Shown here: piece after piece, positions 6,263-64,000 of the stretch
How positions within the stretch are numbered: position 1 is the first letter of the stretch
Layout of the letters: the number at the start of each line of letters is the position of its first letter
Assembly (NCBI GenBank): GCA_030386295.1
Contig: JANQAO010000002.1
Location: 186,868-250,867 of the forward strand
Length of the DNA: 64,000 nt
Reading direction: 5' to 3'
DNA from: Candidatus Doriopsillibacter californiensis
GTDB taxonomy: Bacteria > Pseudomonadota > Gammaproteobacteria > Tethybacterales > Persebacteraceae
Notes under the pieces: generated by a model
The model's input: only the letters and a program-made list of their open reading frames with translations
What the model was told of the DNA's origin: nothing
The model's database searches: none
Position numbers and translations under genes: made by a program

Positions 6263-6415
6263 ACGTAAAATGATAATCCTGTTTTTTACGGGCTACCGTC
6301 AACAACTGCCACATTCAAAATTCGCATTATTATTGAATTTCGTTATAATTGTTGCCACTGGTGCACTCCAAGTGCTTCGGTTATTTTTTTCTATATTGTA
6401 TAAAAAGGAGAGTTA

Positions 6416-7531: not shown

Positions 7532-7594
7532 AAACGTTCTTTCTTGGTAGCGCTCGCTCGATTTTTAGTGGCGCTACCTTTTGAAAGAAAAAAA

Positions 7595-8845
7595 ATGACT
7601 GATGTTGTCAACGACACTACACTAAAAACTCGTTTTTCCCGTACCGAACGACGTAAGCGAGTTCGGGCGTTATTGCTGGTATTACCACTATTTTTATTTA
7701 TCTGCGTGACATTTTTGGCCCCCGTAGCCGAAATGCTGTTCCGCAGCACGGATAATACGGCAGTACATAACGCACTCACTAATACACACAAAGCGCTATC
7801 CAGTTGGGACGAAAATAGCGGTGAACTACCGCCACAGGCGGCATATTTGGCCATTATTGCCGACGTTAAGGCAGGTGCGAAAAAAAAAATGTTCACCCGT
7901 GTCGGCCGACGGCTAAACTATCAAATATCCGGCGTTTCCAGCATGTTTCGAAAAACAGCTCGCCAAGCTCGGCGTCTGCCTGACGATATTGCTGACCCGC
8001 AAACAGCTCTCATTAAAATCCACAAAAAATGGGGGGATGTCAATATCTGGCGAGGAATTAAATATTTCACTACACCCTATACCAGCAGCTACTATCTAGA
8101 TGCAACGGATTTTGGCTATGTCCTAGAAAATGGCGACTACGCTCGCAAAGTTGAATCTCAGCGTGTCTATTTGAATCTGTTTTGGCGAACGATTATCATG
8201 TCAGTAGCTATCACCCTGTTGACGTTATTAATGGCCTATCCCACCGCCTTTTTGATTTCCAGTATATCCTCCCAAAGTGCTAATTTATTACTCATTATGG
8301 TGTTATTGCCCTTTTGGACATCGCTTTTGGTGCGCACTACTTCATGGATTGTGCTGTTATATCAGGAAGGCGTAATTAACGATTTACTCGTGTCTCTGGG
8401 GCTAGTAAGCGACGACGGGCGACTGGAACTCATTCATAATACCACCGGCACCATCGTGGCAATGACCCACATTTTATTGCCTTTTATGTTACTACCGCTG
8501 TACAGCGTAATGAAAACTATTAATCCCGCATATATGCGGGCAGCTCGTTCCATGGGAGCGGGAGCGTTCACAGCGTTTCGGCGCGTGTATTTCCCTCAGA
8601 CCGTGCCTGGCATTGGTGCCGGTGCTATTTTAGTCTTCATCCTTGCCATCGGCTATTATATAACGCCAGAACTAGTCGGCGGCGTAGAAGGCACGTTTAT
8701 CTCCAACCGCATTGCATATCATGTGCGCAGTTCGGGTAACTGGGGTCTGGCGTCAGCGCTAGGCTTTATATTACTGATCTTAGTGCTATTAATGTATTGG
8801 TGTTACGACAAAATTGTCGGCATTGACAATATGAAATTGGGTTAA
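7595..8845 (+). CDS. ABC transporter permease (PotB-like) with a large loop after TM1
   Basis: Multi-TM protein of the BPD-transporter inner-membrane component type (EAA-like region AARSMGAGAFTAFRRVYFPQ). About 150 hydrophilic residues lie between TM1 and TM2. ATG chosen at 7595. Confidence 0.8.
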   Translation: MTDVVNDTTLKTRFSRTERRKRVRALLLVLPLFLFICVTFLAPVAEMLFRSTDNTAVHNALTNTHKALSSWDENSGELPPQAAYLAIIADVKAGAKKKMFTRVGRRLNYQISGVSSMFRKTARQARRLPDDIADPQTALIKIHKKWGDVNIWRGIKYFTTPYTSSYYLDATDFGYVLENGDYARKVESQRVYLNLFWRTIIMSVAITLLTLLMAYPTAFLISSISSQSANLLLIMVLLPFWTSLLVRTTSWIVLLYQEGVINDLLVSLGLVSDDGRLELIHNTTGTIVAMTHILLPFMLLPLYSVMKTINPAYMRAARSMGAGAFTAFRRVYFPQTVPGIGAGAILVFILAIGYYITPELVGGVEGTFISNRIAYHVRSSGNWGLASALGFILLILVLLMYWCYDKIVGIDNMKLG

Positions 8846-8847
8846 CC

Positions 8848-9696
8848 ATGATGCCGTCTTATGTACAGGGCTGGGAAAAAATATGGCATTACGTTCTGCG
8901 GGTGATTGCCGGCTTAGTTTTGTTTTATCTTATTTTTCCAATTTTTGTCATCGTTCCGCTGTCGTTTAACGCGTTGCCGTATTTTGTTTTCACCGAAGAA
9001 ATGCTGTCGCTGGACCCAGCAGGTTATTCGCTGCAATGGTACAAAGATTTTTTTACTGACATTAACTGGCAAACAGCGGTAAAAAACAGCGTGATTATTT
9101 CTCTGTTCTCCACGCTGCTCGCAACTTTCCTTGGAACATTAGCGGCGCTGGGCCTATCGCGTTCTTATCTACCGTTCCGCCGCGCTATTATGGCCATGTT
9201 AATTTCACCGATGATCGTACCGCTCATTATCTCGGCGGCAGCCATGTTTTTCTTTTATTCCAGTATTAATTTGCAAGGCACTTACGTCGGCGTCATCCTA
9301 GCACACACCGCGCTAGCCACACCATTTGTTGTTATTACGGTAACGGCAACACTGTCCAACTTTGATTATTCATTGGTACGCGCATCTCACAGCTTGGGCG
9401 CGTCACCCACTACTACATTTTTTCGTATTATTGTGCCGATAATTTTTCCCGGCGTTATTTCGGGAGCTTTGTTTGCTTTCATCACTTCGTTTGATGAAGT
9501 AGTAGTAATACTTTTTGTTGGTTCATACGAGCAACACACCATACCTTGGCAAATGTTTTCCGGTATTCGCGAGCGCATCAGCCCCACTATTTTAGCGGTA
9601 GCGACAATATTAATATTCCTATCCATTTTGCTACTGCTTGCCACAGAACTACTACGCCGACGCACTGAACGGCTACGTGGTATCACCGGTGTGTAA
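8848..9696 (+). CDS. ABC transporter permease (PotC-like)
   Basis: Six-TM permease with an EAA-like loop (RASHSLGASPTTTFFRIIVP). It starts 2 nt after the preceding permease. Confidence 0.85.
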   Translation: MMPSYVQGWEKIWHYVLRVIAGLVLFYLIFPIFVIVPLSFNALPYFVFTEEMLSLDPAGYSLQWYKDFFTDINWQTAVKNSVIISLFSTLLATFLGTLAALGLSRSYLPFRRAIMAMLISPMIVPLIISAAAMFFFYSSINLQGTYVGVILAHTALATPFVVITVTATLSNFDYSLVRASHSLGASPTTTFFRIIVPIIFPGVISGALFAFITSFDEVVVILFVGSYEQHTIPWQMFSGIRERISPTILAVATILIFLSILLLLATELLRRRTERLRGITGV

Positions 9697-9781
9697 TACT
9701 CAACACTCCAAAAATAATTTTTCAGTAATTTTTCTACTTTAGCATTATGGTAACGGCTTCAAACACCGCTTAAAACGTAAT

Positions 9782-10348
9782 TTATGCACGCTCCATATAT
9801 TCACCGCTATCGGTATTAACACGAATTTTTTCGCCGCTAGAAACGAACGGCGGCACCATCACCGTAATACCGGTTTCTACTGTTGCTGGCTTGTATGAAG
9901 AACTTGCCGTTGCACCTTTAGCTTGCGGATCAGTATTGGTGATTTCCAACGTTACTGATGTTGGCAATGTAATACCAATGGCACGTTCATTGTAAAAATT
10001 GACTTCAACTAACATGTCGGGCAGCATAAAACCTTCGCGTCCTTCAAACATATCAGCACCCAATGTTGTTTGTTCAAAAGACTCTTCATCCATAAACACA
10101 AAACCGTCGGCGTCTTGATACAAAAAACGCATTTTGTGCTGCTCTACGTGCGGGCGCTCAATTTTGTCATCTGTGTGCAACCGCAAACTATTTTTGGAGC
10201 CAGTTTCAATATCTTTTACTTCCACCTGCATGTAAGCACCACCGCGCCCCCCCACATGCACATGCCGCGCTCGAACTACGCGCCATAATCGCTTATCAAC
10301 TTCAATTAAAATTCCGCCTCGCACTTCAGTAGCCAATATTTTTGCCAT
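9782..10348 (-). CDS. efp: Elongation factor P
   Basis: 189 aa with EF-P KOW/OB architecture and GATASSSYKPATVETG...DSGEYMERA. The ATG at 10348 is preceded by AAGGA. Confidence 0.9.
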   Translation of the reverse strand: MAKILATEVRGGILIEVDKRLWRVVRARHVHVGGRGGAYMQVEVKDIETGSKNSLRLHTDDKIERPHVEQHKMRFLYQDADGFVFMDEESFEQTTLGADMFEGREGFMLPDMLVEVNFYNERAIGITLPTSVTLEITNTDPQAKGATASSSYKPATVETGITVMVPPFVSSGEKIRVNTDSGEYMERA

Positions 10349-17176: not shown

Positions 17177-18262
17177 TCAGTCCCAGCTAAGCTTTCCTCC
17201 TGTTTGGTATTCTATCACACGCGTTTCAAAAAAGTTTTTCTCTTTTTTCAAATCAATTACTTCACCCATCCAAGGAAATGGATTACGCGCATTACTAAAA
17301 GCTGCAGGCAGACCGATTTGCTCCAAGCGGCGATTGGCAACAAAATGCACAAACTCTGTAAACATACCGCAATTTAATCCAAGCATGCCGCGCGGCATAG
17401 TTTCTTCTGCGTAGCGACATTCCAGCGATGCTGCTATTTTCATCATACCCACCACTTCAGCTTGAAACTCTGGCGTCCACAGGCGAGCATTTTCTATTTT
17501 AATTTGATTAATAACATCTATGCCAAAATTTAAGTGTAATGACTCGTCGCGCAAAATATACTGTACTTGCTCAGAACAACCCGGCATTTTATTTTGTCGT
17601 CCCAAAGACAAAACTTGCACAAAGCCAACATAAAAGAATAATCCTTCCATAATCATAGCAAAGGCAATTAATGATTTTAATAATTGCTGGTCAGCTTCAA
17701 ATGTGCCGGTATTAAATTTGGGGTTGGTAAGCGTGTCAATATATTCTAGGCAAAAAGCGTCTTTATCATGCACACAAGGCACTTCCATGTACATGTTAAA
17801 TATCTCTCCTTCGTCCAGCCCCAGCGACTCAATAATGTATTGATAAGCATGTACGTGCACTGCCTCTTCAAATGCTTGCCGCAATAAATATTGTCTACAT
17901 TCGGGATTTGTGATGAGGCGATAAGTGCCAAGTAATATATTATTGGCGGCAAGCGATTCGGCCGTAGCAAAGAAACCAAAATTTCTTTTTAACATGTGCC
18001 GTTCATCCGGATTCAATGCGTTGCCACGCCACTGCTCAATATCTCGTTGCATGGAAACCTCATTGGGCATCCAATGATTGGCGCAGCTATTAAGATACTT
18101 TTTCCACGCCCACTGATATTTAATCGGCATTAATTGATTGACATCGGCGCGACAGTTAATGATGCGCTTATCATCTACTTTGACGCGGCGAAAAGTTTCT
18201 GGACTGGGTTGTGGGTGAACAAGCACCTTTTCTTCCTCATCGTTCCATTGTAGTGTAGTCAT
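17177..18262 (-). CDS. nrdB: Class Ia ribonucleotide reductase beta subunit
   Basis: Di-iron/tyrosyl radical protein motifs (EAVHVHAY..., ESLHLNF). C-terminal tail ...[11 protein letters not shown]. Confidence 0.95.
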
Positions 18263-18282: not shown

Positions 18283-19722
18283 TTATGTTAATAATTCAGG
18301 CGTTAGTTTTTCCAAATCTCCATTTTGCCTCTTCTTTTTAAAGCACTCTGGCCATTTTTCTTTATTTGTCGGATGTACTTTCAGCCACCTTGAATTTTCT
18401 GAGTGCTGAATTTTTGAAACTTCTATTGCATCATCCTTAGAAATAATCCATCCATGAGGCTTAAAAGGCGAAATTCCGAGTAAAAATAAATAGTCATACT
18501 CTTTATCTTTTTTTATTTGTTCAAATGTATATGCACCGCTTTCCCAAAGAAAAGAAAGCTTAACTGCCATTTTTTTATCGTTTACTTCTATTATTTCATT
18601 TTTCGGTTTAACAGAACATTTCACCCAATATTCAGACAAAAATTTAGTAACAAGTTCCCTTGCCTTTTTCCCTTTAGTAGCAGGGGCCGCTATATGTAAC
18701 CATTCGTAAGGGCTCCCCTGCCATTCTTTGCGAATTTTACAGCTGCTTTTTAGCTCAAAAGAAGCATGGTCAAAAATATTATCCGCTTTACAATTTTCTT
18801 TACTTACAGCGTCAGATATATCAGAGGCGTCATTTAGTCTCCTAAGCACCACCTCATAAGATTCTTGACTACTATCAATTAAGATATATTTTCTTCTCGT
18901 TTTTTTAGCTGCTTCTCCCAGCGTTCCGCTACCTGCAAAAAAATCCAATACGGTATCCCCAATTTTGGAATGTGTTACAACTATGCGTTTGACGATATCC
19001 AACGGTTTCTGCGTTGCATAATTGACTCTTTCCTTACCGTTGGTCGGTACAATCGTTTGCCACCATACATCTGTACTCAACAAGAAGTCTGTCCCCCATA
19101 CGTCTGTCGGTTTCTTTCCTTTGGCTGCTTTTTCTGCTGATACCAACCCCGGTGCCATGTATGGAATGCGGTCTATATCATCATAGTTAAAAATATAATT
19201 GTCAGGGTCTTTGGCAAACCAATAGATGTTATCGTGTTTAGCCGGCCATTTATTCTTTCCTCGGCCACCAAAGTCATACGCCCAAATAATCTCGTTAATA
19301 CAGTGCGAGCTCCCGCCAAAAATCTCTTCTAATAACAAGCGACAGTTGGCCGCCTCTCGCCAGTCAATATGAAAAAACAGACTGCCGTTAGGCTTCAAAA
19401 TGCGATGCGCTTCTTGCAAGCGCGGTTGTAAAAAGCCAGTAAAATCATCAAAAGAGTCGGCGTAGCCAGATTTTCCGATAACCGTAGAATGATAACGATT
19501 ACCGCAAAATCCCGTACGGTCACCTTCGCCACCATTAATGCGTGTGGTTTTAATTCGTGTGCGGCTTTGTTTTTTACCCGTATTAAACGGCGGATCTATG
19601 TAGATTAGAGAAACTGTTTCAGATTTTATTTGTTTCAATAACGGCAGATTGTCGCCCAACAACATTTCCCCCCCGCCGGGAAGGCGTTTCTGTTTTGTGG
19701 CAAGCTCTTTCAAGGTAGGCAC
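18283..19722 (-). CDS. Beta-class N6-adenine (or N4-cytosine) DNA methyltransferase with an extra ~170-aa C-terminal domain of unknown function
   Basis: Motif [10 protein letters not shown] lies N-terminal to motif I FFAGSGT, which is the PF01555-type order. The C-terminal 170 aa (from about ISDAVSKEN) carry no MTase motifs and are encoded by visibly more AT-rich DNA. Confidence 0.85.
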
Positions 19723-19733
19723 AACAGATTATG

Positions 19734-22628
19734 TTACTGACACGCTTCACAATCTGGGTCATCTATAGCACAAGCCTGAGGCGCGCTACTGCCGTTGCTA
19801 CCACCGGCACTCACCGCGTTGAGTGCGCCAGTGCGAGCTGTATATTTTTCGGTACTGGATGCGCCCATAGAGCGCAAATAATAGGTTGTTTTCAAACCAC
19901 TACGCCACGCCAGTTTATACATTTCATCCAATTTTTTACCGGACGGTTCGGCAATGTACAAATTGAGCGATTGCGCCTGATCCATCCATTTTTGTCGCCG
20001 AGCTGCGCAATCAATCAACCACTTTGGTTCTACTTCAAAAGCCGTTGGATATTTAGCTCGTACCGATTCGGGAATACGAGTAATTTGCTCCAATACGCCA
20101 TCAAAATATTTGATATCTTCCAACATAACATCGTCCCATATCCCCAGCGCTTTAAGGTCATCCACTAGATAGCGGTTAGAAACCGTAAAATCACCAGACA
20201 AATTAGATTTAACATAAATATTTTGGTACGTTGGCTCAATAGATGCCGTTACGCCAACGATATTAGCAATGGTCGCCGTCGGCGCAATTGCCACACAATT
20301 AGAATTCCTCATTCCGTACATTTTGATGCGCTCGCGCAATAACTGCCAGTTTTGCCGTTGTGACAAATCCGCTTGCAAATAGTCACCGTCTAGTCGGTCA
20401 CCACCGCCATCCGCCGACAACGGCAGTTCACCACTCACGTCCACATTGTCACCTCGCTCGGCGGCAAGTAAACGCAATGTATCGTGCGGAAGTATGCCGC
20501 GATCCCACAAACTGCCTTCAAACGATTCGTAAGCCCCTCGCTCGGCTGCCAGTTCAGTAGACGCCAGATAAGCGTGATAACACAGCAATTCAGCAGTATT
20601 ATCAGCAAACTCTACTGCCTCCGGTGAATTGTAGGGAACGTTCATTTCATACAAGCAATCTTGAAATCCCATCATCCCTATACCTACCGGTCGGTGTCGC
20701 TTATTAGCATTTTCGGCTTTGGATACCGCATAGTAGTTAATATCAATAACGTTGTCTAACATACGCATTGCCGTGCGTATCGTTTTTTCCAACTTATCTT
20801 CGTCCAAAACGCCGTCTTTAAAGTGTGCTGGTAGGTTAACTGACCCTAAATTGCACACCGCAATTTCGTCTTGGTTCGTATTGAGCGTAATTTCGGTACA
20901 AAGATTGGAAGAGTGAACAACACCGATATGTTGCTGCGGCGAGCGAATATTGCAGGCATCTTTGAAAGTTATCCACGGATGCCCAGTTTCAAAAAGCATG
21001 GTCAGCATACGCCGCCACAATTCTACCGCTTGCAAAGTTTGGTGATGTAATTCACCACGTGCTGCTTTTTCTTCGTAGGCAACGTAAGCACGCTCAAAAT
21101 TAGCGCCACATAAATCATGCAAATCAGGAACGTCTGCCGGAGAAAACAGTGTCCACTGCCCCTCTTCCATCACTCGCTTCATAAACAAGTCTGGTATCCA
21201 ATTAGCAGTATTCATGTCGTGAGCACGACGACGCTCGTCACCCGTGTTTTTGCGCAAATCTAAAAATTCTAAGATATCCAGATGCCAAGTTTCTAAATAA
21301 ACGCAAACCGCCCCTTTGCGTTTGCCTCCCTGATTCACGGCAACTGCCGTGTCGTTGACAATTTTGAGAAAAGGGATTACACCTTGTGATTTGCCGTTGG
21401 TTCCTTTGATACGAGCACCCATAGCACGCACCGGCGTCCAATCATTACCCAATCCGCCGGCAAACTTGGCCAACAACGCATTTTCACGGTACGAATCAAA
21501 AATCTCCGCTAAATCATCTCCCACTGTTGTCAAATAACAACTAGACAACTGTGAATGGCGGGTACCTGAATTAAACAGTGTCGGAGTGGAACTCATAAAA
21601 CGGAAAGATGACAGTATTTCATAAAATTCTGCCGCACGTTCAGTGGGATTGTCTTCATTGAGCGCCAATCCCATCGCCACACGCATAAAAAAGCTTTGCG
21701 GCAGTTCAATTGGCCGCTCGTCCACACGCAAAAAGTATCGGTCATACAGGGTTTGCATACCTAAATAGCCAAACTGCAAATCGCGCTCTGGTCGCAGTGT
21801 ACTGCCCAACACCGCAAGATCAAACCGAGAAGCCAGCAACGGATTGAGTAATTCACCCGCCACACCAACACGCACCATGTCTAGCAGATGGTTAGCGTAC
21901 AAATCTTCCATTTCAGTGTGGTGCACATCGCGACCAAACACTTCAAAGCGTAAAAAGTCCAACAATAACCGAGCACTGACCTGAGAGTACTGCGGCTCAC
22001 GCTCAATACGTGCTCTAGCAGCTAGATAGAGTGCCTTACAAATTTCTTTTTCGTGTATCCCATCATACATTTCCTGCAGCGATCTTTGTAGCAACGACTC
22101 TACATCCGTCGCGTCCAGCCCTCTACAAGCTTCTTTTACTTGCTCTTGCAGTCGATGTACGTCTAGCTGATACTGCCGACCATTTTTATCAGTCACTTGA
22201 ATGGGTGTTGGCAGTATTTCCCGCGCTTTTTGATTGCGCGCCTCAGCGTGGCGCTCACGATATAACACATAGGCACGTGCCACCTGATGATGCTCACCGC
22301 GCATCAACGCCAATTCGACTTGATCTTGGATTTCTTCAATATGAAAATGCGCTGCAGCTGGGCGGCGACGTGACAACGCTTCCAGCACCCGCTCGGTAGT
22401 ATGTTCTACAATATTTCGCACACTGGCAGAATCGGCGGCACCAGCACCACGAACCTCCAAAAACGCCTTGGTCATTGCTACTGATATTTTTTGGCGGTCA
22501 AATTTTACAACAGCACCATTACGACGAATGACGCGATAATCGCCCAAAATCGGCGAATTGTCGGTAAAATCGTTACTAACAGACCGAACAGAACTAGTAA
22601 CAGCGACTTGTTTAATAATTGGTTGCAT
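19734..22628 (-). CDS. nrdA: Class Ia ribonucleotide reductase alpha subunit (long form with two N-terminal ATP-cones)
   Basis: 964 aa with two ATP-cone-like segments, the catalytic core (NLCTEI, radical Cys region) and a C-terminal CxxC tail (DCEACQ). Confidence 0.95.
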   Translation of the reverse strand: MQPIIKQVAVTSSVRSVSNDFTDNSPILGDYRVIRRNGAVVKFDRQKISVAMTKAFLEVRGAGAADSASVRNIVEHTTERVLEALSRRRPAAAHFHIEEIQDQVELALMRGEHHQVARAYVLYRERHAEARNQKAREILPTPIQVTDKNGRQYQLDVHRLQEQVKEACRGLDATDVESLLQRSLQEMYDGIHEKEICKALYLAARARIEREPQYSQVSARLLLDFLRFEVFGRDVHHTEMEDLYANHLLDMVRVGVAGELLNPLLASRFDLAVLGSTLRPERDLQFGYLGMQTLYDRYFLRVDERPIELPQSFFMRVAMGLALNEDNPTERAAEFYEILSSFRFMSSTPTLFNSGTRHSQLSSCYLTTVGDDLAEIFDSYRENALLAKFAGGLGNDWTPVRAMGARIKGTNGKSQGVIPFLKIVNDTAVAVNQGGKRKGAVCVYLETWHLDILEFLDLRKNTGDERRRAHDMNTANWIPDLFMKRVMEEGQWTLFSPADVPDLHDLCGANFERAYVAYEEKAARGELHHQTLQAVELWRRMLTMLFETGHPWITFKDACNIRSPQQHIGVVHSSNLCTEITLNTNQDEIAVCNLGSVNLPAHFKDGVLDEDKLEKTIRTAMRMLDNVIDINYYAVSKAENANKRHRPVGIGMMGFQDCLYEMNVPYNSPEAVEFADNTAELLCYHAYLASTELAAERGAYESFEGSLWDRGILPHDTLRLLAAERGDNVDVSGELPLSADGGGDRLDGDYLQADLSQRQNWQLLRERIKMYGMRNSNCVAIAPTATIANIVGVTASIEPTYQNIYVKSNLSGDFTVSNRYLVDDLKALGIWDDVMLEDIKYFDGVLEQITRIPESVRAKYPTAFEVEPKWLIDCAARRQKWMDQAQSLNLYIAEPSGKKLDEMYKLAWRSGLKTTYYLRSMGASSTEKYTARTGALNAVSAGGSNGSSAPQACAIDDPDCEACQ

Positions 22629-47002: not shown

Positions 47003-47905
47003 TTATTTTTTACAGTTATCGTCACCAGGCTCAGTTCGCCGATTAGCGATTAATAAACCGAACATCACCAAACTGGCACCGACAAAAAAGGCAGTTCCGA
47101 TATTCTCGTTCAGCAACATCACACCCAAAATCACCGCCACCAGCGGAATAATAAATGCTGTTTGTGTCGTGTTAACCGCACCGATTGTTCGTATTAGATA
47201 AAAATACAATAAAAACGCACAATACGTACTGAACATTGCCATACTCGCCACGGCCAACAAAGCACCAGCTGGCGGTAGCGGCATTTGCCACGGAGCTTCC
47301 CACAAACACAATGGCAACAACAACAATGTCGCCCAAATCAATTGGCCACAAGCGTTTTCCATAGGCGCAAAATCAGCAGTATAACGGCGGGCAAAAATCG
47401 CTACTACCCCATAAGAAGCTGATGCTGCCAGCCCCGCCATACTCCCCCAAAAAAAGGCATCATCAGTTTCCAGTCCCGGTTGAAAAAGAACCGTAATTCC
47501 AACGACACCGATAAACAATCCTACCAATCGCCGCCAGCGCATGGTTTCTTCACCGACCATACACGCCATTACCAGCGTAAACAAGGGTGTGGTGGAATTG
47601 AGCACTCCTGCCAAAGAACTGTCTATGTATTGTTGTCCCCAAGAAAATCCTGCAAAAGGAAAAGCACTACCAAAAAAAGCGAGGACAATATACTTGCGCC
47701 TTCGTTGCCAAATCACGCCCAACCACATGCCACGAACTCGCAAAGTTATACACAATAGTACTGCCGCTGTACCAATGCGAAAAAAAACGATAGTAAATGG
47801 AGCAAGTGCCTTAAGTGCAATTTCCGCCATCAAGAAAGAACTACCCCACAACACAGCGAGCAATGTTACCAACGCCCAATGACGCGCATTCATTAATAAA
47901 ATCAA
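47003..47905 (-). CDS. DMT-superfamily (EamA-like) transporter
   Basis: 300 aa and 10 predicted TM segments in two EamA-like halves. Confidence 0.8.
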   Translation of the reverse strand: MILLMNARHWALVTLLAVLWGSSFLMAEIALKALAPFTIVFFRIGTAAVLLCITLRVRGMWLGVIWQRRRKYIVLAFFGSAFPFAGFSWGQQYIDSSLAGVLNSTTPLFTLVMACMVGEETMRWRRLVGLFIGVVGITVLFQPGLETDDAFFWGSMAGLAASASYGVVAIFARRYTADFAPMENACGQLIWATLLLLPLCLWEAPWQMPLPPAGALLAVASMAMFSTYCAFLLYFYLIRTIGAVNTTQTAFIIPLVAVILGVMLLNENIGTAFFVGASLVMFGLLIANRRTEPGDDNCKK

Positions 47906-55654: not shown

Positions 55655-55926
55655 ATCGTATTTGGGGGTGTTTATAAATCACCCACTTGAGTGCTGAACT
55701 CTGAGAGCAAAACCACCGACGCGATGCTTAATAAATCGCTAAAAATACCGAAAATTGGGTGTTGGAAAAGACAACTTATTTCATATCCTTAGGTTACAAC
55801 AGCTCTGCCAAGTGTAAGTACAACTGATTTTCCAATTTTTGAATGTTTTTTTATGGTATTATTTATGGTTCCGCGTTTTGTGACCGGTTAATATTAAAAC
55901 AATCTAATCTTGAAGGAATCACTACC

Positions 55927-56991
55927 ATGACAACGAAAAGAGACTTAGTCACCCGCTTAGATGATGGCGGCGTGTTATGTGCTGAAGGCTTTTTATTTGA
56001 AATAGAGCGGCGCGGCTATATGGCATCTGGTGCTTTTGTTCCCGAAGTAGCACTGGAAAACCCCCATGCTCTGCGTACGCTACACAAAGACTTTCAACAT
56101 GCTGGCAGCGATGTTGTACAAGCTTTTACATACAATGGCCACCGCGAAAAAATGCGGGTTTTAGGCAAAGAAGAGCTATTGGAGCCACTCAACAAGGCAG
56201 CGTTACAAATTGCTACCGACGTGGCAAATGACGTCCCCGAAGGCATCGAACCCAATCTCGTCGCCGGAAATATCTCCAATACTAACCTTTGGCATCCAGA
56301 TGATAAAAACGCACAAAAAGAAGTGCGCAAAATGTTTGACGAAATGATTGGCTGGGCGGTTGACGCTGGCGTTGACTTGATTATCGGCGAAACTTTTTAT
56401 TATGCCGGCGAAGCCTTTGCCGCACTAGAAGCCATTCAACAAAGTGGCTTGCCAGCGGTGGTGACGATTTCACCGATGGGTGAAAACAAAATGCGTGATG
56501 ACTGGGATGTTGTAGACACCTGCGCCGAACTGGAACAACGCGGTGCTACAGTAACCGGCATGAACTGTTTTCGTGGTCCACAAACGATGATGCCTTATAT
56601 CCACGAGATTCGCAAGCGCGTAAAGTGCCATGTCGCAGCACTACCGATAACTTTTCGGACCACACCAGAGCACCCGACATTTTTTAATCTGCCAGATAAC
56701 AACGGCTGCACCTGCCCAGCACCACACGGCCGGTCGTTTCCTACCGCATTAGAAGCGATGTCGTGCAACCGTTATGAAATTCGCGCCTTTGCTGACGAAG
56801 CGTGGGCGTTGGGGGTGAATTATCTGGGTGTCTGTTGCGGTGCCGTGCCGATTTACATCCGCGAAGTAGCAGAAGCGATGGGACGGCGTCCTCCAGCAAG
56901 CCGCTATGATGTAGATATGTCACGCCATTTTATTTATGGCTCACACGAACGCCTTGCCAACCACATTACATCTTACGGCGACCGAGCATAA
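55927..56991 (+). CDS. bhmt: Betaine--homocysteine S-methyltransferase-like (Hcy-binding domain) protein
   Basis: GVLCAEGFLFEIERRGY, HKDFQHAGSDVVQAFTY and GVCCG are collinear with animal/bacterial BHMT as I recall it. The ATG at 55927 is preceded by GAAGGA. Confidence 0.75.
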   Translation: MTTKRDLVTRLDDGGVLCAEGFLFEIERRGYMASGAFVPEVALENPHALRTLHKDFQHAGSDVVQAFTYNGHREKMRVLGKEELLEPLNKAALQIATDVANDVPEGIEPNLVAGNISNTNLWHPDDKNAQKEVRKMFDEMIGWAVDAGVDLIIGETFYYAGEAFAALEAIQQSGLPAVVTISPMGENKMRDDWDVVDTCAELEQRGATVTGMNCFRGPQTMMPYIHEIRKRVKCHVAALPITFRTTPEHPTFFNLPDNNGCTCPAPHGRSFPTALEAMSCNRYEIRAFADEAWALGVNYLGVCCGAVPIYIREVAEAMGRRPPASRYDVDMSRHFIYGSHERLANHITSYGDRA

Positions 56992-57116
56992 TTTTAGATG
57001 GGCGGGAGGATTACCTTCCCGCTTACTGTTGGTAGCAATTAAGTAGCGTTGGCAATCTAATAAGCCGACGCCACATCTCATGTTAGACGATTACTTGGGT
57101 AGTAACGACATTAGTA

Positions 57117-58742
57117 ATCTACGATAGCAGAAATTATATGTGCCTATTAGACGACAAAAGAAAAATCACTTCCAAAAAAGATCTACGATAGTAGAAATTA
57201 TATGTGCCTATTAGACAACCATGAGACCAGTCGGTAACCGCGTATCTACGATAGTAGAAATTATATGTGCCTATTAGACCCGGTGTAAAAATCAACGGTC
57301 AGAGAAATCTACGATAGTAGAAATTATATGTGCCTATTAGACACGTATAAACCTAATAAGTAGCATCACAATCTACGATAGTAGAAATTATATGTGCCTA
57401 TTAGACAACAGCGCAAGAAGCCGAAAATTCATAAATCTACGATAGTAGAAATTATATGTGCCTATTAGACCCTCACGAACGGATATAAACCCATCGTAAT
57501 ATCTACGATAGTAGAAATTATATGTGCCTATTAGACATAATAGGCGAAGACGGGTTAACCGAAATCTACGATAGTAGAAATTATATGTGCCTATTAGACG
57601 GGCATAACAGTATTACGTAATCCTTATTATCTACGATAGTAGAAATTATATGTGCCTATTAGACATTCGCGTGCCTAATGTTATCGCACCTATCTACGAT
57701 AGTAGAAATTATATGTGCCTATTAGACTAGCCGGCAGAATATAATCAGAAACAATCTACGATAGTAGAAATTATATGTGCCTATTAGACTCGGACAGTAA
57801 TAAATCATCACGCGCGATCTACGATAGTAGAAATTATATGTGCCTATTAGACGCGGAAGCAAAGCGGCTGGCTATATGGCATCTACGATAGTAGAAATTA
57901 TATGTGCCTATTAGACACAGCGCAAGACGCTGAAAACTCATAACAATCTACGATAGTAGAAATTATATGTGCCTATTAGACTGCCAAGAATATTAACTAC
58001 GCTCACTATCTACGATAGTAGAAATTATATGTGCCTATTAGACTTTTAAATAGCCATACTTACTAAGGAGGATCTACGATAGTAGAAATTATATGTGCCT
58101 ATTAGACATTAATTAATTGCATCTCGGAGGGAGGATCTACGATAGTAGAAATTATATGTGCCTATTAGACCATCAATCTCAACAATTAATTCACTCAATC
58201 TACGATAGTAGAAATTATATGTGCCTATTAGACTGGGGATGACCCTCATGCAGATTTAATATCTACGATAGTAGAAATTATATGTGCCTATTAGACGATT
58301 TTAATACCCGGAATGCCATGAAATCTACGATAGTAGAAATTATATGTGCCTATTAGACGAGACTAACCGGGTGGAACGGCATAGCCGATCTACGATAGTA
58401 GAAATTATATGTGCCTATTAGACCTCTGGTCATTTATTCATGTGGTCGGAATCTACGATAGTAGAAATTATATGTGCCTATTAGACAAAAGAAAAATTAC
58501 TCGTAGAAGTTAAATCTACGATAGTAGAAATTATATGTGCCTATTAGACGTCAAGAAAAGACAATAAAAGGTTATAATCTACGATAGTAGAAATTATATG
58601 TGCCTATTAGACACATATAAAACCTGTCAAGCCGAAGGGTGTATCTACGATAGTAGAAATTATATGTGCCTATTAGACGTAAAAATGAAAAGGAAGTAAA
58701 AATGAAATCTACGATAGTAGAAATTATATGTGCCTATTAGAC
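57117..58742 (-). CRISPR. Type V-A CRISPR array: 26 repeats of 36 bp, 25 spacers of 26-30 nt
   Basis: In the transcribed sense the repeat is GTCTAATAGGCACATATAATTTCTACTATCGTAGAT. Its 3' part, AAUUUCUAC-UAUC-GUAGAU, is the Cas12a crRNA handle. Repeats start at 57117, 57181, 57244 ... 58707. Only the distal repeat (57117) carries a substitution. Confidence 0.97.
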
Positions 58743-58748
58743 AGCTAT

Positions 58749-58777
58749 TTAATAAAAACATCGCCTTTCGCATTCAA
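58749..58777 (-). promoter_or_regulatory. Candidate sigma70 promoter in the CRISPR leader
   Basis: On the minus strand, TTGAAT-17 nt-TATTAA ends 6 nt before the first repeat. The leader (58743-58895) is AT-rich and also contains the palindrome GTTTGCAAAC (58859-58868). Confidence 0.35.
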
Positions 58778-58895
58778 CGAACGCGATTTTTTACTTTTTA
58801 TCGCTGTTTTTAATGAACAGTAAGCTTTTTCTCGGAAGATTTTTTCATTAAGACCAAGGTTTGCAAACGCTTTTTCTAGCACGATTCAGATTCTA

Positions 58896-59168
58896 TCATA
58901 AGACAATTAAATCCGTATCGTCATTTAGTGCATAACCATAATGGGTAATTTTGCATTGTTTGCTCATACTAAAAATCATGATGCTATCGCGCTGAGAAAA
59001 TCTTTTTTCAAATCGTCCCTTGATTTCCGACTCTATAATTGCCAAAACTCGCGCGCTATTTCTTATCTCAAAAATAGAATATTGCAACCGATAACCAAAT
59101 TTACTTAAATATTTAGAAAACTCAGTACGTAGTTTCGTATCGCTAATGTCATAAGAAACAATCAGCAT
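58896..59168 (-). CDS. cas2: CRISPR-associated endoribonuclease Cas2
   Basis: 90 aa, MLIVSYDIS...YSIFE ferredoxin-like Cas2 pattern. It overlaps cas1 by 7 nt. Confidence 0.95.
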   Translation of the reverse strand: MLIVSYDISDTKLRTEFSKYLSKFGYRLQYSIFEIRNSARVLAIIESEIKGRFEKRFSQRDSIMIFSMSKQCKITHYGYALNDDTDLIVL

Positions 59169-60154
59169 TTTTCATTCAAAAATTTATTAAATAACGGATA
59201 TTCGTCAACTGGTTTCTGTCGCATAAAGCAACGATAATACTGTTGAGTGTACAAAAACATGCCCTGCTTGTGTGTCAAAATTTCCTCTAGCAACCATTTC
59301 AAATAGCTACGCGATTTTTCTCCAAACAAACGATATTGCCCCTGTATCACATCAAAATCTTCTACATTAACCTGCCCCAAACTAAAAGCCTTGCGGATAC
59401 GGCTGTCAATAATAGGACGAAAAGGCTCCACCAAATCACAAACTAACGACTTGCGCTGATAAAACTGCTGATGATACACACCCCTATACAGGTCAAAGCC
59501 ATACAGATTAAGTAAGCCTTCCACAAAATTAAATAGCAGCGTATAGCCGATATCTAGTAACGTGTTGGTCGGATCTTGCTTAGCTCGAGGTTTTCTGCCG
59601 TGCCAACTCTCTCGTCCAAATAGTTGTTGAAAATAAACCCGCGCAGCACTACCTTCTAATCCTAATAAATTTTGTAAATCCAAATCAGGAGAAGGAAGTC
59701 GCGCTTCATGATTTTGCAGGTGTTGAATTGCTATCCGTTTTTTTTCATCTTTATTGCGAATATTTTTTAACACTTCTCGCTGTTGCTGAATTTTGTTCAT
59801 AACTAAGTGTTGGGCAAGATCAGTGTTTTCATAGTCATATTGTCTTTTCCGAAGTACTACATTACCCTCAGTTTTATTATTAAATTGACCATACACTGTC
59901 AGGTTGTGTCCCATCAATATCAGGCTAAAACCAAATTTTTTCGCACGCTGCAACAATCCCGAAGTAACAACAACATGACCAACAATAAACAAAGCAAAAA
60001 GTCGGTAACAGGTAGACTGATGTTTAATGTTTTCATCTTCACCTCTGATAATAATATTGTCATTTTTAAAACTCAGCTTGTCCCCCCGACTTAGCAATGC
60101 CAGCACAATTTGTTTTTGTTTAAAATCTGGCGCGCTAAGCATGGTCTCAATCAA
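59162..60154 (-). CDS. cas1: CRISPR-associated integrase Cas1
   Basis: 330 aa with conserved Cas1 C-terminal domain motifs (DPTNTLLDIGYTLL, SLVCDLVEPFRPIID). Confidence 0.95.
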   Translation of the reverse strand: MIETMLSAPDFKQKQIVLALLSRGDKLSFKNDNIIIRGEDENIKHQSTCYRLFALFIVGHVVVTSGLLQRAKKFGFSLILMGHNLTVYGQFNNKTEGNVVLRKRQYDYENTDLAQHLVMNKIQQQREVLKNIRNKDEKKRIAIQHLQNHEARLPSPDLDLQNLLGLEGSAARVYFQQLFGRESWHGRKPRAKQDPTNTLLDIGYTLLFNFVEGLLNLYGFDLYRGVYHQQFYQRKSLVCDLVEPFRPIIDSRIRKAFSLGQVNVEDFDVIQGQYRLFGEKSRSYLKWLLEEILTHKQGMFLYTQQYYRCFMRQKPVDEYPLFNKFLNEKC

Positions 60155-60157
60155 CCC

Positions 60158-60718
60158 TCAATCGGCCAGCGAGTAATCACACAATGCCCGGTAGACACAC
60201 TGCCGACATTTATTAACGTTGGCAACAAACGGTGCATTTAGTTCAAAATCCCGCATTTGTTGAATAAGTACCTCAAAGTCCCGCAATTTGTCTGGAGCGT
60301 CTTGTGGTAGCGGCACAAAGTAGCTTTTGTTGTCGTCCATGCTGTAGAGTTTGATTTTTTGCACCGGATAACCCATTTCAGTCAAACAAAAATATTGAGC
60401 ATATAGTTGAAAAACATAGCCGTTATATAGCATTTTTATTTTCTTTTTACGCTCGGTTAGCAACCGCTTATTTTGGTCATAAGTATCCACCTTGCCGCAT
60501 AGCCCATAAGTATCGCTGTACACCTCCACTCCCTGCATTACCGCTTTGGCGGTAGTATATGTTTTGTTGTCTATAGTTCGGTGTGCGTTCAATCCTGCCG
60601 TTTGATGAGTCGTATGATAAAAACGTTTTGACATTTTGCCGTAAAGCTGATGAAAATAAATAGAGCGCGGGCAAAAAAGAAAATCATTCAGAAAAGATAT
60701 TTGTATATACGATTCCAT
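60158..60718 (-). CDS. cas4: CRISPR-associated exonuclease Cas4
   Basis: N-terminal Cys (FLFCPR), RecB-like GKVD...ERK, QLYAQY, and the C-terminal CRQCVYRALC Fe-S cysteines. Confidence 0.9.
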   Translation of the reverse strand: MESYIQISFLNDFLFCPRSIYFHQLYGKMSKRFYHTTHQTAGLNAHRTIDNKTYTTAKAVMQGVEVYSDTYGLCGKVDTYDQNKRLLTERKKKIKMLYNGYVFQLYAQYFCLTEMGYPVQKIKLYSMDDNKSYFVPLPQDAPDKLRDFEVLIQQMRDFELNAPFVANVNKCRQCVYRALCDYSLAD

Positions 60719-60763
60719 TGTGTTCCTAATAATATAGATTAACTCGGTTTTTATTCATGTTTA

Positions 60764-63700
60764 CTAAACAGTTAATATTTTTTCGTTATCTAAATCGGGA
60801 GATTTTTCTTGCACAAATTGATACCATTCTTTGTTGGTAATGTTTAATCTCTCTTCTCCTTTGTTAATTTGCTCTAACGCCCATAACCCTTTTAGTGCAA
60901 TGTGATACGCTCCGTTAGCATCAGCATTTTGCGGGACATCGCCACCCACATCGCGAGAGTCAAAGAAATTTCCATTCGCATCCGGTATCGGCGAAATCAT
61001 CCAATCCTCATCTGAATTAATACGGCTATTACGAAGTTGTAAAGTTAACCTGAGCAATCGAATAAGTTCTTTGAAAAAACCTGTGTCATTTTGATTTTCA
61101 ATATCGCTTTTAATATCTTCTTTATTTTCATAGTCAATAACCGTGTTTTTAAATAATTCTTTGAATTTTTCGGTTAAATTAATTTCTCTTGTGTCCCATT
61201 TATCATTTTTAGAGGTTCTAAAATTCTCAAGCCGCTTACCATAGGAACAAATTGTCCATTTTTGTTTACTGTCTTCAGCCTTATCCGTAAATTTTTTATA
61301 ATCCAAATGAAATTCAAAATATTGTTTTTCAGTATTAAATTTTATCAAATCAAATTTGTTAAAAAATTCTTGTGCCTTCTTAACAGTTTCATAATGAGGA
61401 TATAGTAAGTTCACAAACCCTGTCACTGGGCAAATTTTGGACGTGTGGTAGGCAGAGACATAAAAAACAACTCCAGTTTGCTTGCCCATTTTTTGAAAAC
61501 TTTTAAATGGTGCTGTCAGCTGCAATGCTTTTAGCACTCCGCCAGCATGGCTTGGTTCTTTCTCTTTTAGCACTAAATAATTAAGTTTGTCTATCAACAT
61601 TTTTTCCAGTTTTTGATAGATTTGTTTTTCTACCTTAAAGCGGCCTTTTTTGAAACCAAAATTTAAATCTTCAAGTACTACAATAGCGTTGTGTTCTACT
61701 ATCATCCGACAAATTTTGTGCACGACTTGCGACAAATAACCCTCTTTCAAGTCCTTAATCCGTTCAATACTTCCCCAAGACTTTCTAGATTTATCTCGCT
61801 CAACTTCTCTTTTATTCAAAAGATAATGATAGTCTTTTGAATAAATTTTTCCTTTATTATCACTTTCTATTACATTAAAACTGCCCTGCAAATACTTACC
61901 ATTCACATCTTGAAGTATTTCCCTTTTTTGGTTAATCAGCGTGTAATAAGCTAAGTGACGCTCTCCTCTATCTATCCCCAAAATATTGACGGTTGGATTA
62001 TCTTTTAGAAATGCATTAATTTTGTCATTAAAGTGAGGTGCTCCTAAAGCTTTAAAATTACACCCAATGGATACATGAAACAAGTATCTGTCTTTGGCAT
62101 AACGTTTGTCTTTGATAATAGGAAGGCGCTTGCCATTCTTGTCAAACTTTCCTTTCAATTCTTCGTAGTGATGCCCCTGTTCCCAAATTTTTTCATCATA
62201 CTTAATAGATGCTTTCCTAAAAAATAGTTCTGCTTTTCCATTAAGTTTATAAACCACATTTTTTAAATTTTCAGGGGTAAATAAATTTCTCCAATACAAG
62301 GTTTGTAAACTAGGTTTTCCTTTTGCATGTGGCGAAAAGTCTTTGCTATAAATCTCAAACAAATATAATTCCCCTTCTTCCACACATTGATCTATATAGC
62401 TCACCGAAATATCTTGAAAAGATATTTTGTAACCCTGATGCTCTACCTCTTTATAAAACCCACTTAAGTCGTTATACTGACTTGTGTCTGAAAACTTAAA
62501 TCCAAAACCTCTCCATTCTGGACGAGAATTAATTGATTCTTTAAAAAAATCAATTATATTTCTCATATCTTTTACATCAAATTCCTCTTTTTCATAACCT
62601 TTTTGAGGAGTGCCTTTTTGGGTATGAGTGGCATGGTTCCTAATTCTCAAAATCTCATCAGACGGATTATAATAATTTATATTTTCTTTACTGAAAAATA
62701 CCTTCGGTAACATTTTGCTTGCCCCAGGAAGAAGTTTATATTCCATTTTTTGGTAATTATCAGATGTGTTTTTTAGCGCTTCCAAAGATTTTGCTTGTTT
62801 CTTTATGTTTTTTTCCATATTTTCTAATTTATTCTTCAAATCATCATAAGCTTTTGTGCCTTCTTTTTTGTTTAATAAGATTGCCTTATGTTCTTCAATT
62901 TTTTTTATGTTTTCCGCCATACTATCTTCAATTGATTTTGGACTTAAATTATCACTTTCAAATAATTTTGCTGTTCGTCTATCCATAACACCCAAAAAAT
63001 ATTTTTCGCCTTTGCGTAAAAGCACACAAGTATTATCAGTTTCTTTATTTTTATCCCATCCATCTGCTAACGTGATATTTTCAAAATTTAACTTATATTT
63101 TTCTATGTTGTACGGCTTTTTTGTAAGATAGTTACGTGTTTGATTATAAAGTGGCGTAATCTGTTCTAGCACTTCATACAAACGATCAAAATCCCCATAA
63201 AAAGCACTATCTTTATCTAGCACATCAGCATGTTCTTTTTCTTTCTGCTTGACTTTTTTGCGGTGTGGTTGTTTTTCCGTTAGCACATCAGCATGTTCTT
63301 TTTCTTTCTGCTTGACAAATAACGGTTTTAAAAACTGCTGTAAATCTTGCACTGCATCTAAATATACTTTGATTTTAGATACCTCTTTTTTATTATTTTT
63401 TAACGTTTCTGTTTTTTCGCCTTTATATTGTTTTAACACATTAAAAGCGGGTGGCGCTAATTTTATAATTTCATCAAGCAATTCTTTCTCTTCAAAAACA
63501 TCGGTTTCTTCATTCTTTTTTCTAAACATTAAATTTTCAAAATAGCGAAAAAGCGGTTCGCTCATTGCTTTTTTTTTCATTTCTATAGTAACACCTTCAT
63601 CCTTATTATCTACAAGATCTTCGTCTTTATATTGCTCAAAATCTTTTTTTAATGCTTTATGAATAGTATCAAATGAAAAATAAGTGCTCTTAAGCCATGA

Positions 63701-64000
63701 TTCTCTTGCTTGCTCAGTAAATCGCTTAGACTCACCTTTTTTATTTTTCCCCAGTAATCTATTTTCTGCATAATTTTCTAAGCTTCGTTTTATGACATCC
63801 CAGTCACCAAATAAAAACTGAGAAATGTTAGCAAGCTCTTTGCCGTTTTTGATATAAATACTTTGAGCATCTGCTTCTGATATGCTTTCAAGGATCTCTC
63901 TTAACTGCTTAGTAATATTAAAATCTTCAGTGTTTTTATTTCCTTTCTCATCTTCAATTTCTTCTCTGCCAATTAACTCATCCTTTTCATTTAATTGGAA
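60764..64000 (-). CDS. cas12a: Cas12a (Cpf1) type V-A effector, 5' end beyond the window (at least 1078 aa present)
   Basis: RuvC I GIDRGERHLAYY, RuvC II VVLEDLNFGFK, RuvC III DADANGAYHIALKG, Nuc SKICPVTGF, and LLPGASKMLPKVFF. It is extensively collinear with FnCas12a. My hand translation shows the frame stays open from 63581 to 64000, so the listed 938-aa ORF is not the full gene. Confidence 0.95.
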   Translation of the reverse strand, partial: FQLNEKDELIGREEIEDEKGNKNTEDFNITKQLREILESISEADAQSIYIKNGKELANISQFLFGDWDVIKRSLENYAENRLLGKNKKGESKRFTEQARESWLKSTYFSFDTIHKALKKDFEQYKDEDLVDNKDEGVTIEMKKKAMSEPLFRYFENLMFRKKNEETDVFEEKELLDEIIKLAPPAFNVLKQYKGEKTETLKNNKKEVSKIKVYLDAVQDLQQFLKPLFVKQKEKEHADVLTEKQPHRKKVKQKEKEHADVLDKDSAFYGDFDRLYEVLEQITPLYNQTRNYLTKKPYNIEKYKLNFENITLADGWDKNKETDNTCVLLRKGEKYFLGVMDRRTAKLFESDNLSPKSIEDSMAENIKKIEEHKAILLNKKEGTKAYDDLKNKLENMEKNIKKQAKSLEALKNTSDNYQKMEYKLLPGASKMLPKVFFSKENINYYNPSDEILRIRNHATHTQKGTPQKGYEKEEFDVKDMRNIIDFFKESINSRPEWRGFGFKFSDTSQYNDLSGFYKEVEHQGYKISFQDISVSYIDQCVEEGELYLFEIYSKDFSPHAKGKPSLQTLYWRNLFTPENLKNVVYKLNGKAELFFRKASIKYDEKIWEQGHHYEELKGKFDKNGKRLPIIKDKRYAKDRYLFHVSIGCNFKALGAPHFNDKINAFLKDNPTVNILGIDRGERHLAYYTLINQKREILQDVNGKYLQGSFNVIESDNKGKIYSKDYHYLLNKREVERDKSRKSWGSIERIKDLKEGYLSQVVHKICRMIVEHNAIVVLEDLNFGFKKGRFKVEKQIYQKLEKMLIDKLNYLVLKEKEPSHAGGVLKALQLTAPFKSFQKMGKQTGVVFYVSAYHTSKICPVTGFVNLLYPHYETVKKAQEFFNKFDLIKFNTEKQYFEFHLDYKKFTDKAEDSKQKWTICSYGKRLENFRTSKNDKWDTREINLTEKFKELFKNTVIDYENKEDIKSDIENQNDTGFFKELIRLLRLTLQLRNSRINSDEDWMISPIPDANGNFFDSRDVGGDVPQNADANGAYHIALKGLWALEQINKGEERLNITNKEWYQFVQEKSPDLDNEKILTV
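63218..63316. repeat. 36-bp direct repeat with 63-bp period inside cas12a (in-frame 21-aa duplication)
   Basis: TAGCACATCAGCATGTTCTTTTTCTTTCTGCTTGAC occurs at 63218-63253 and 63281-63316. It encodes KQKEKEHADVL twice. Confidence 0.9.

Follow-up and report, generated by a model that had tools for sequence, protein, structure and literature searches.

The window analysed here, a stretch of 64,000 nucleotides (nt) from the chromosome of Candidatus Doriopsillibacter californiensis, ends in a block of low guanine-plus-cytosine content (G+C; positions 56992-64000), the minus strand of which carries, in the order cas12a-cas4-cas1-cas2, the genes of a CRISPR-Cas (clustered regularly interspaced short palindromic repeats and CRISPR-associated proteins) system, followed by a 153-nt leader and a CRISPR array. 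The locus raises the question whether it represents an intact adaptive immunity system, whether its deviating base composition marks it as foreign, and in which respects it departs from the type V systems already described. As to the first point, it is very probably a canonical type V-A (Cas12a) CRISPR-Cas adaptive immunity locus of approximately 8 kilobases (kb) and of intact appearance, placed between a homocysteine S-methyltransferase-family gene and hemH. Systems of this kind are already known; what is new is a long, divergent Cas12a orthologue in a little-sampled animal symbiont. The features are as follows (all protein lengths in amino acids, aa):

56999..57025, no strand assigned: G+C-rich hairpin at the left edge of the low-G+C block (fold -20.8 kcal/mol in a 60-nt context)
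57055..57088, minus strand: possible vestigial 27th repeat, GTCTAACATGAGATGTGGCGTCGGCTTATTAGAT (low confidence)
57117..58742, minus strand: CRISPR array of 26 36-nt repeats separated by 25 spacers (26-30 nt)
58743..58895, minus strand: leader, 153 nt, 0.33 G+C
58896..59168, minus strand: cas2, 90 aa (PF09827 50.6 bits, TIGR01573 42 bits)
59162..60154, minus strand: cas1, 326 aa (ATG start, 60142) or 330 aa (TTG start, 60154)
60158..60718, minus strand: cas4, 186 aa (TIGR04328)
60764..64000, minus strand, frame open at base 64000: cas12a, C-terminal 1078 of 1410 codons (TIGR04330)
62786..62953, minus strand: 56-residue insertion in Cas12a, aa 682-737 (alignment and structure prediction)
63251..63313, minus strand: in-frame duplication of 21 residues (aa 562-582) in the REC2 region of Cas12a (repeat search and alignment)

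Gene content and integrity of the locus

An exact-protein look-up with Cas4 led to a 108-kb contig of the Joint Genome Institute (JGI; L001, also held as L137), which shows 100% identity with the window throughout the shared 13,843 nt. On this contig, cas12a (5723-9955) is an uninterrupted open reading frame (ORF) of 1410 codons, the first 332 of which lie outside the window; 126 AT-rich base pairs (bp) precede its start and include AAGGG, which resembles a Shine-Dalgarno motif, and the right-hand neighbour is the divergently oriented hemH (ferrochelatase), followed by trpC and trpD. The initial annotation, made from the window's letters, had left the cas12a 5' end and the right junction beyond its reach and had named disabling mutations in the missing part as a reason for doubt; both ends are now recovered, the junction being hemH, and the complete cas12a carries no disabling mutation and aligns end to end with its homologues.

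The hemH product is 100% identical to the NCBI entry 'ferrochelatase [Candidatus Persebacteraceae bacterium Df01]', the NCBI name of Candidatus Doriopsillibacter californiensis; this skin symbiont of the nudibranch Doriopsilla fulva is the host of the locus. It is a member of the Ca. Tethybacterales that dominates the mantle of D. fulva, and was described in 2023 from specimen Df01 by sequencing of single cells and cell pools that had been sorted by fluorescence-activated cell sorting and whole-genome amplified; the nearest genomes share 45-53.5% amino-acid identity with it (PMC10262491). A CRISPR system is mentioned neither in this description nor in a follow-up paper of 2026. As far as found, the locus is thus the first record of CRISPR-Cas in this chemically defensive nudibranch symbiont.

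The identity of the effector is carried by the curated model TIGR04330 (cas_Cpf1), which scored 999 bits against a cut-off of 300, and by the Pfam domains REC1, cas_Cpf1_2nd (REC2), Cpf1_PI-like, RuvC_1 and NUC; an HNH domain was not matched in the Pfam scan. The alignment of the full-length protein with many orthologues extends over 99% of its length; the nearest of these among 5.8 billion proteins shares 57% identity, and the best solved structures are those of ReChb and of FnCas12a (E = 0). In a multiple alignment with 119 homologues, the RuvC residues D1009, E1109 and D1359 (codons at 61970-61972, 61670-61672 and 60920-60922 of the window) and the Nuc residue R1322 (61031-61033) were invariant (119/119); they align with D917, E1006, D1255 and R1218 of FnCas12a. 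The residues of the precursor CRISPR RNA (pre-crRNA) RNase, H942, K948 and K962 (62111-62173), corresponding to FnCas12a H843, K852 and K869, are kept and were present in 117, 91 and 115 of the 119 homologues, respectively; as judged from this residue set, Cas12a has what self-processing of pre-crRNA would demand. The pairwise phmmer alignment places a glutamate against FnCas12a H843, with the histidine displaced by four residues; a loss of the RNase histidine was nevertheless rejected, the multiple alignment retaining it in a shorter 'GHH' loop that is common to the closest homologues. Equivalents of both lysines that contact the protospacer adjacent motif (PAM) in FnCas12a, K613 and K671 (numbering of the 1300-residue chain 8y0b), are also conserved.

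Between cas12a and the array lies a cas4-cas1-cas2 module of the type V (PREFRAN) subtype: Cas4 reached 221.6 bits with TIGR04328 (cas4_PREFRAN; cut-off 70), Cas1 398.6 bits with TIGR04329 (cas1_PREFRAN; cut-off 300), and the score of Cas2 with TIGR01573 (cas2) likewise exceeds its cut-off of 24.5. PADLOC and Pfam agreed with the curated-model calls for all four Cas proteins. Cas4 retains C16, C171, C174 and C180 together with the nuclease residues D78, E89 and K91; Cas1, in the numbering of the 326-aa form, has the catalytic residues E163, H224, D236 and E239; the conserved aspartate of Cas2 is D7. Gene callers choose the ATG start of cas1 (59162-60142), and an exact-protein look-up with the TTG-start form gave no match; cas1 overlaps cas2 by 7 nt.

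The array is built from the 36-mer GTCTAATAGGCACATATAATTTCTACTATCGTAGAT, of which 25 of the 26 copies are identical; in the leader-distal copy (57117-57152) a single A is replaced by G, and the stem is preserved through the resulting G-U pair. Folding of the 3'-terminal 19 nt of the repeat (AAUUUCUACUAUCGUAGAU) gives a stem of 5 bp closed by a 4-nt loop (z = -6.6), a typical Cas12a crRNA handle; the 3' end AATTTCTACTATCGTAGAT reads as the canonical AAUUUCUAC-loop-GUAGAU and lies on the strand that encodes cas12a. The corresponding motif ATTTCTAC-N3-6-GTAGAT occurred in arrays downstream of cas12a and on its strand at 36 of 51 other cas12a loci fetched, and was absent from all of the approximately 165 loci obtained with unrelated genes. 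Outside the array, the 8.6-kb locus contains no stretch of at least 14 nt complementary to the repeat, which, at the level of sequence, fits a system without trans-activating crRNA; no Rfam family matched at the gathering thresholds, and an exact scan of one-genome-per-species contigs for the repeat gave no match. Thus, what the initial annotation had stated on the type V-A identity with Francisella-type gene order, on the intact RuvC, Cas4, Cas1 and Cas2 motifs and on the 25 identical repeats is borne out by the curated family models, by the residues themselves and by direct counting.

Three further observations concern the array and its leader. The stretch at 57055-57088, which starts with GTCTAA exactly 28 nt past repeat 26 and ends in TAGAT, may be a decayed 27th repeat; its local alignment score lies within the range of shuffled sequences. 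A 45-codon ORF with a GTG start (58745-58882, minus strand) takes up nearly all of the leader and is annotated as a gene in public assemblies; it matches nothing in Pfam or PADLOC and is probably spurious. Every repeat contains a perfect TATAAT (within CACATATAATTTC) approximately 7 nt upstream of the handle stem, and some spacers complete a sigma-70-like site; internal promoters were rejected as a feature of the repeats, the promoter scan giving 9 sites versus 11.0 +/- 3.4 in shuffles.

If the components act as their counterparts do, transcription of the array would start from the leader and run parallel to that of the cas genes, and Cas12a would cut the precursor upstream of each AAUUUCUACUAUCGUAGAU hairpin by means of H942, K948 and K962 to release crRNAs of approximately 42-45 nt. 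The crRNA-Cas12a complex is predicted to recognise a T-rich 5' PAM (TTN or TTTV), and both PAM-contacting lysines are conserved; the single RuvC site (D1009, E1109, D1359) with R1322 of Nuc would then cleave both strands of the matching invader DNA, and Cas4-Cas1-Cas2 would insert new spacers at the leader end.

The two insertions of Cas12a

Cas12a exceeds the median homologue length (1258 aa) by approximately 150 residues, and most of the lineage-specific extra length is made up by two insertions, which are the only unusual features of the locus and are themselves lineage-specific. The shorter one, in the REC2 region, is a 21-residue duplication with exact 36-nt copies at 63218-63253 and 63281-63316. 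The longer one comprises 56 residues rich in lysine and glutamate; it stands in place of a 4-residue loop of FnCas12a (644-647) between two WED strands, a strand pair directly ahead of the PI domain. AlphaFold2, run on residues 600-900 of Cas12a with an alignment of 50 sequences, predicted two long antiparallel helices with a local confidence (predicted local distance difference test, pLDDT) of 95-98.

Only two of the 119 homologues, P0016 (1402 aa) and P0021 (1461 aa), have an equally long insertion at this place in WED; they share a conserved K-K-x-G-T-K-x-Y turn with the protein described here; both are approximately 50% identical to it overall and 20-36% within the insertion, and neither belongs to its nearest relatives. 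Two other homologues have approximately 20 extra residues at this site, and the remaining 115 a short loop. In a HMMER scan of 1.84 billion representative proteins with the 56 residues, the sole match was a truncated copy of the same protein.

These data bear on the possibility that the insertions, chiefly the WED hairpin, alter the effector in its PAM or handle recognition or in the docking of partners, so that the protein would be a functional variant and not a plain orthologue. The confident structure prediction, the position right before the PI domain, and the preservation of length and turn in two orthologues of only about half-identical sequence speak in its favor; however, a loop of a few residues serves 115 of the 119 homologues at this site, outside Cas12a no sequence related to the hairpin was found, and the known functional residues as well as the crRNA handle are canonical throughout. 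Moreover, surface-loop expansions are frequent in large Cas effectors, which likewise counts against an altered function. On balance, a functional variant is improbable. The more specific proposal, that the hairpin of the three scattered orthologues constitutes a functional module by which PAM or handle recognition is altered or a partner recruited, e.g. the Cas4-Cas1-Cas2 complex, and thereby defines a mechanistic sub-variant, must be considered more improbable still. The reading of Cas12a as an orthologue of canonical type with two insertions is retained.

Base composition and origin of the block

The G+C content is 0.344 for 56992-64000 versus 0.469 for 1-56991, and on the 108-kb contig a block of approximately 8 kb with 0.340 G+C is enclosed by flanks of 0.476 and 0.471. 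The contrast of one-third against one-half G+C that had been estimated by hand in the initial annotation thus holds for the island, whereas the flanks lie nearer to 0.47 than to one-half. At third codon positions, G+C (GC3) is 0.27 in cas12a, 0.31 in cas2, 0.35 in cas1 and 0.42 in cas4, as compared with 0.443 +/- 0.026 for 36 host ORFs; cas2 and cas12a thereby have z-scores of -5.2 to -6.7, cas1 one of -3.4 and cas4 one of -0.8.

The left edge of the block had been placed at a terminator-like hairpin behind a gene termed bhmt. A strong hairpin is indeed present at 56999-57025, beginning 8 nt past the stop codon (56989-56991) of the upstream gene; neither strand shows a T tract, and the hairpin is not among the sites listed by the terminator scan. 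The upstream gene (55843-56991) encodes a homocysteine S-methyltransferase domain (PF02574) that scored 67 bits with the NCBIfam model of betaine-homocysteine methyltransferase, far below the cut-off of 338, and the name bhmt is for this reason not established; the scores with the NCBIfam MmuM and MetH models were far under their cut-offs as well.

The foreign composition of the block being real, a foreign origin is the best reading of its low G+C, and a horizontal origin, as had been proposed, is plausible. The recency of such a transfer goes beyond the evidence, since low G+C is typical of the cas12a family: the G+C content of cas12a ranged from 0.21 to 0.48 in 23 other loci and was below that of the 7-kb flank in 19 of them, and in eight of the nine loci with a flank of at least 0.40 G+C the gap was 0.08-0.23. 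Low G+C being usual for cas12a loci, the composition does not date the acquisition. It is accordingly possible, if on the doubtful side, that the locus is a long-standing resident whose AT-richness is a family property, slowly ameliorating or maintained, and no mark of a recent transfer. The largest deficits were seen in hosts of higher G+C, and the closest genome-level relative of this Cas12a, that of the gammaproteobacterial metagenome-assembled genome (MAG) L025, has 0.39 G+C in a flank of 0.62; the GC3 of cas4 is already in the host range. The block and its extension hold cas genes only, with no integrase or transposase; no tRNA gene was present in the 64-kb window, and no flanking direct repeats of the block were found. 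Conversely, the GC3 gap of five to seven standard deviations in cas12a and cas2 is large for an ancient resident, and the nearest homologues are taxonomically patchy (spirochaetes, Nitrospirales, Bacteriovoracaceae and gammaproteobacteria), a spread which indicates that the cas12a family moves horizontally.

Comparison with related genomes touched the flanking genes. The nearest hemH genes are 68-69% identical, in gene neighbourhoods unlike the present one: among genome contigs there was one match at 68% with no common neighbours, and the homologues P0122 and P0125 are likewise embedded differently. No flanking gene was shared by 80 relatives of the upstream methyltransferase-family gene on metagenome contigs (63-79% identity), and a comparison of FtsK gave 46-47% identity or lower over the full length. 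Marine metagenomes abound in homologues of the upstream gene at approximately 70% identity (at least 558; of the 600 matches listed, 558 were confirmed), and in those listed the gene neighbourhood was different every time.

On the contig of the nearest hemH homologue (L222, 524-1921; GCA_973619955.1), a TnpB/Cas12f-like gene (OrfB_IS605), a Peptidase_M78-DUF4411 pair and a MazE-like antitoxin gene are grouped around hemH; the hemH neighbourhood is a variable region in the closest available relative also.

Elsewhere in the window, a 479-aa type II DNA methyltransferase (18283-19722, minus strand; PF01555, PADLOC MTase_II 368 bits) is tightly packed between the ribonucleotide reductase subunit genes nrdA (19734-22628) and nrdB (17177-18262). 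Within its C-terminal part, aa 332-435 give an additional match, to a type II restriction-enzyme model; its gene is the ORF of lowest G+C outside the CRISPR block (0.40; GC3 0.36), with nrdB next (0.42).

Spacers, adaptation and relation to known systems

A blastn search with the whole array in 50,697 records of phages and 72,556 of plasmids returned chance-level matches only; the best of them (E = 0.01) runs across the border between repeat 1 and spacer 1, which is T-rich. Exact scans of IMG/VR with seven patterns that together cover eight spacers, one pattern being degenerate and covering spacers 13 and 21, gave no match. A candidate for self-targeting, spacer 25 against 47653-47677, was dismissed as chance (three mismatches, T-rich, E 0.014 within the window, flanked by CTCG and not by TTTV). 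Spacers 21 (57407-57434) and 13 (57917-57945) are identical at 24 of 27 positions with an offset of 2 nt and, to judge from this similarity, derive from two independent acquisitions from related targets; their relatedness would imply that the adaptation machinery worked repeatedly at some past time. If a target reads TTTG-TTATGA..., the PAM of spacer 21 would be TTTG; no such target was found.

In the other assemblies the arrays are identical except for one base in spacer 11 of L002. Two contigs of the same series deviate within the cas genes. A 4.4-kb contig (L140, JGI 3300036131) is without window positions 59059-60134, a deletion of 1076 bp that is bounded by two GCGCGCTA octamers (59051-59058 and 60127-60134) and takes nearly all of cas1 together with the first 37 codons of cas2, the array being unaltered. 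In the second (L224, JGI 3300036136), an inverted chimeric junction inside cas12a joins approximately 62843 to 61817 with a 14-nt overlap, as is typical of amplification chimeras, and gives rise to a false 733-aa 'protein' (P0241) that serves as a cluster representative in public protein collections. The deletion in L140 may be either a real allele or an artefact of whole-genome amplification; it is treated as unconfirmed because the material consisted of amplified sorted cells and the inverted chimera of L224 affects the same locus.

Several points weigh against the locus being an intact, canonical system of foreign composition. No protospacer from which the PAM could be read was found for any of the 25 spacers, either in the phage and plasmid searches with the whole array or in the IMG/VR scans covering eight spacers; the identity of the arrays across assemblies means that no spacer turnover is seen; one short assembly (L140) is without cas1 and part of cas2, in a data set that has amplification chimeras in this locus; Cas12a has a 56-residue hairpin and a 21-residue duplication, either of which may affect its activity; and with the GC3 of cas4 lying in the host range, the foreign composition does not extend evenly over the block. 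Beyond the observed gene content, intact frames, conserved catalytic residues, repeat structure and compositional offset, we infer the expression of the locus and its activity, i.e. processing, PAM, cleavage and adaptation.

Some of these points would also be expected if the locus were a relic in which interference may persist, whereas adaptation has stopped and decay is starting in a host-restricted symbiont: the arrays are identical in every assembly covering them, the L140 contig has lost most of the cas1-cas2 region, and no spacer matches any known element searched. However, the main 108-kb contig carries the four cas genes in intact form and with conserved catalytic residues, 25 of the 26 repeats are still identical, and the deletion may be an amplification artefact, as the chimera from the same series illustrates. 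The identical arrays, moreover, come from amplified sorted cells of one animal; they are not independent and are silent on turnover. A relic is therefore unlikely. By the same reasoning, the earlier statement that the system was recently active is not sustained: no spacer match was found, the compared arrays stem from a single animal, and identical repeats are no sign of recent activity, since they are expected of any array built by duplication of the first repeat. The reading as an intact-looking type V-A locus is retained without this addition.

The spacers could help to identify the phages of the symbiont once mantle viromes exist, and the Cas12a described here is a candidate for orthologue screening.

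Compared with the system of Francisella novicida U112 (FnCas12a/Cpf1; PDB 5ng6, 6i1k, 8y0b), the locus has the same order cas12a-cas4-cas1-cas2-leader-array and a 36-nt repeat with the same GTCTAA start and the same AATTTCTACT-loop-GTAGAT end. Cas12a shares with FnCas12a the RuvC D/E/D triad, the Nuc arginine, the RNase His/Lys/Lys set and both PAM lysines in a whole-length alignment, but differs in its size (1410 versus 1300 aa), in the helical hairpin and the REC2 duplication, which FnCas12a lacks, and in the RNase loop, which is of the 'GHH' subtype as in the closest homologues and of the I-x-H-P type in FnCas12a; F. novicida also belongs to another host lineage and habitat. ReChb (PDB 8qwd, name as deposited) gave the top phmmer score (1160 bits) and is aligned across all domains; with 1261 aa, it is without both insertions. 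The nearest of the 5.8 billion proteins, the uncharacterised orthologues P0001-P0004 and that of L025, show 55-57% BLAST identity at 99% coverage; L025 has the same cas12a-cas4-cas1-cas2-array order and, likewise, a low-G+C locus in a genome of higher G+C, whereas none of these proteins exceeds 57% identity and none has the hairpin insertion. The locus thus adds one divergent, unusually long Cas12a to a very large, well-understood family and leaves the current understanding of type V-A systems unchallenged.

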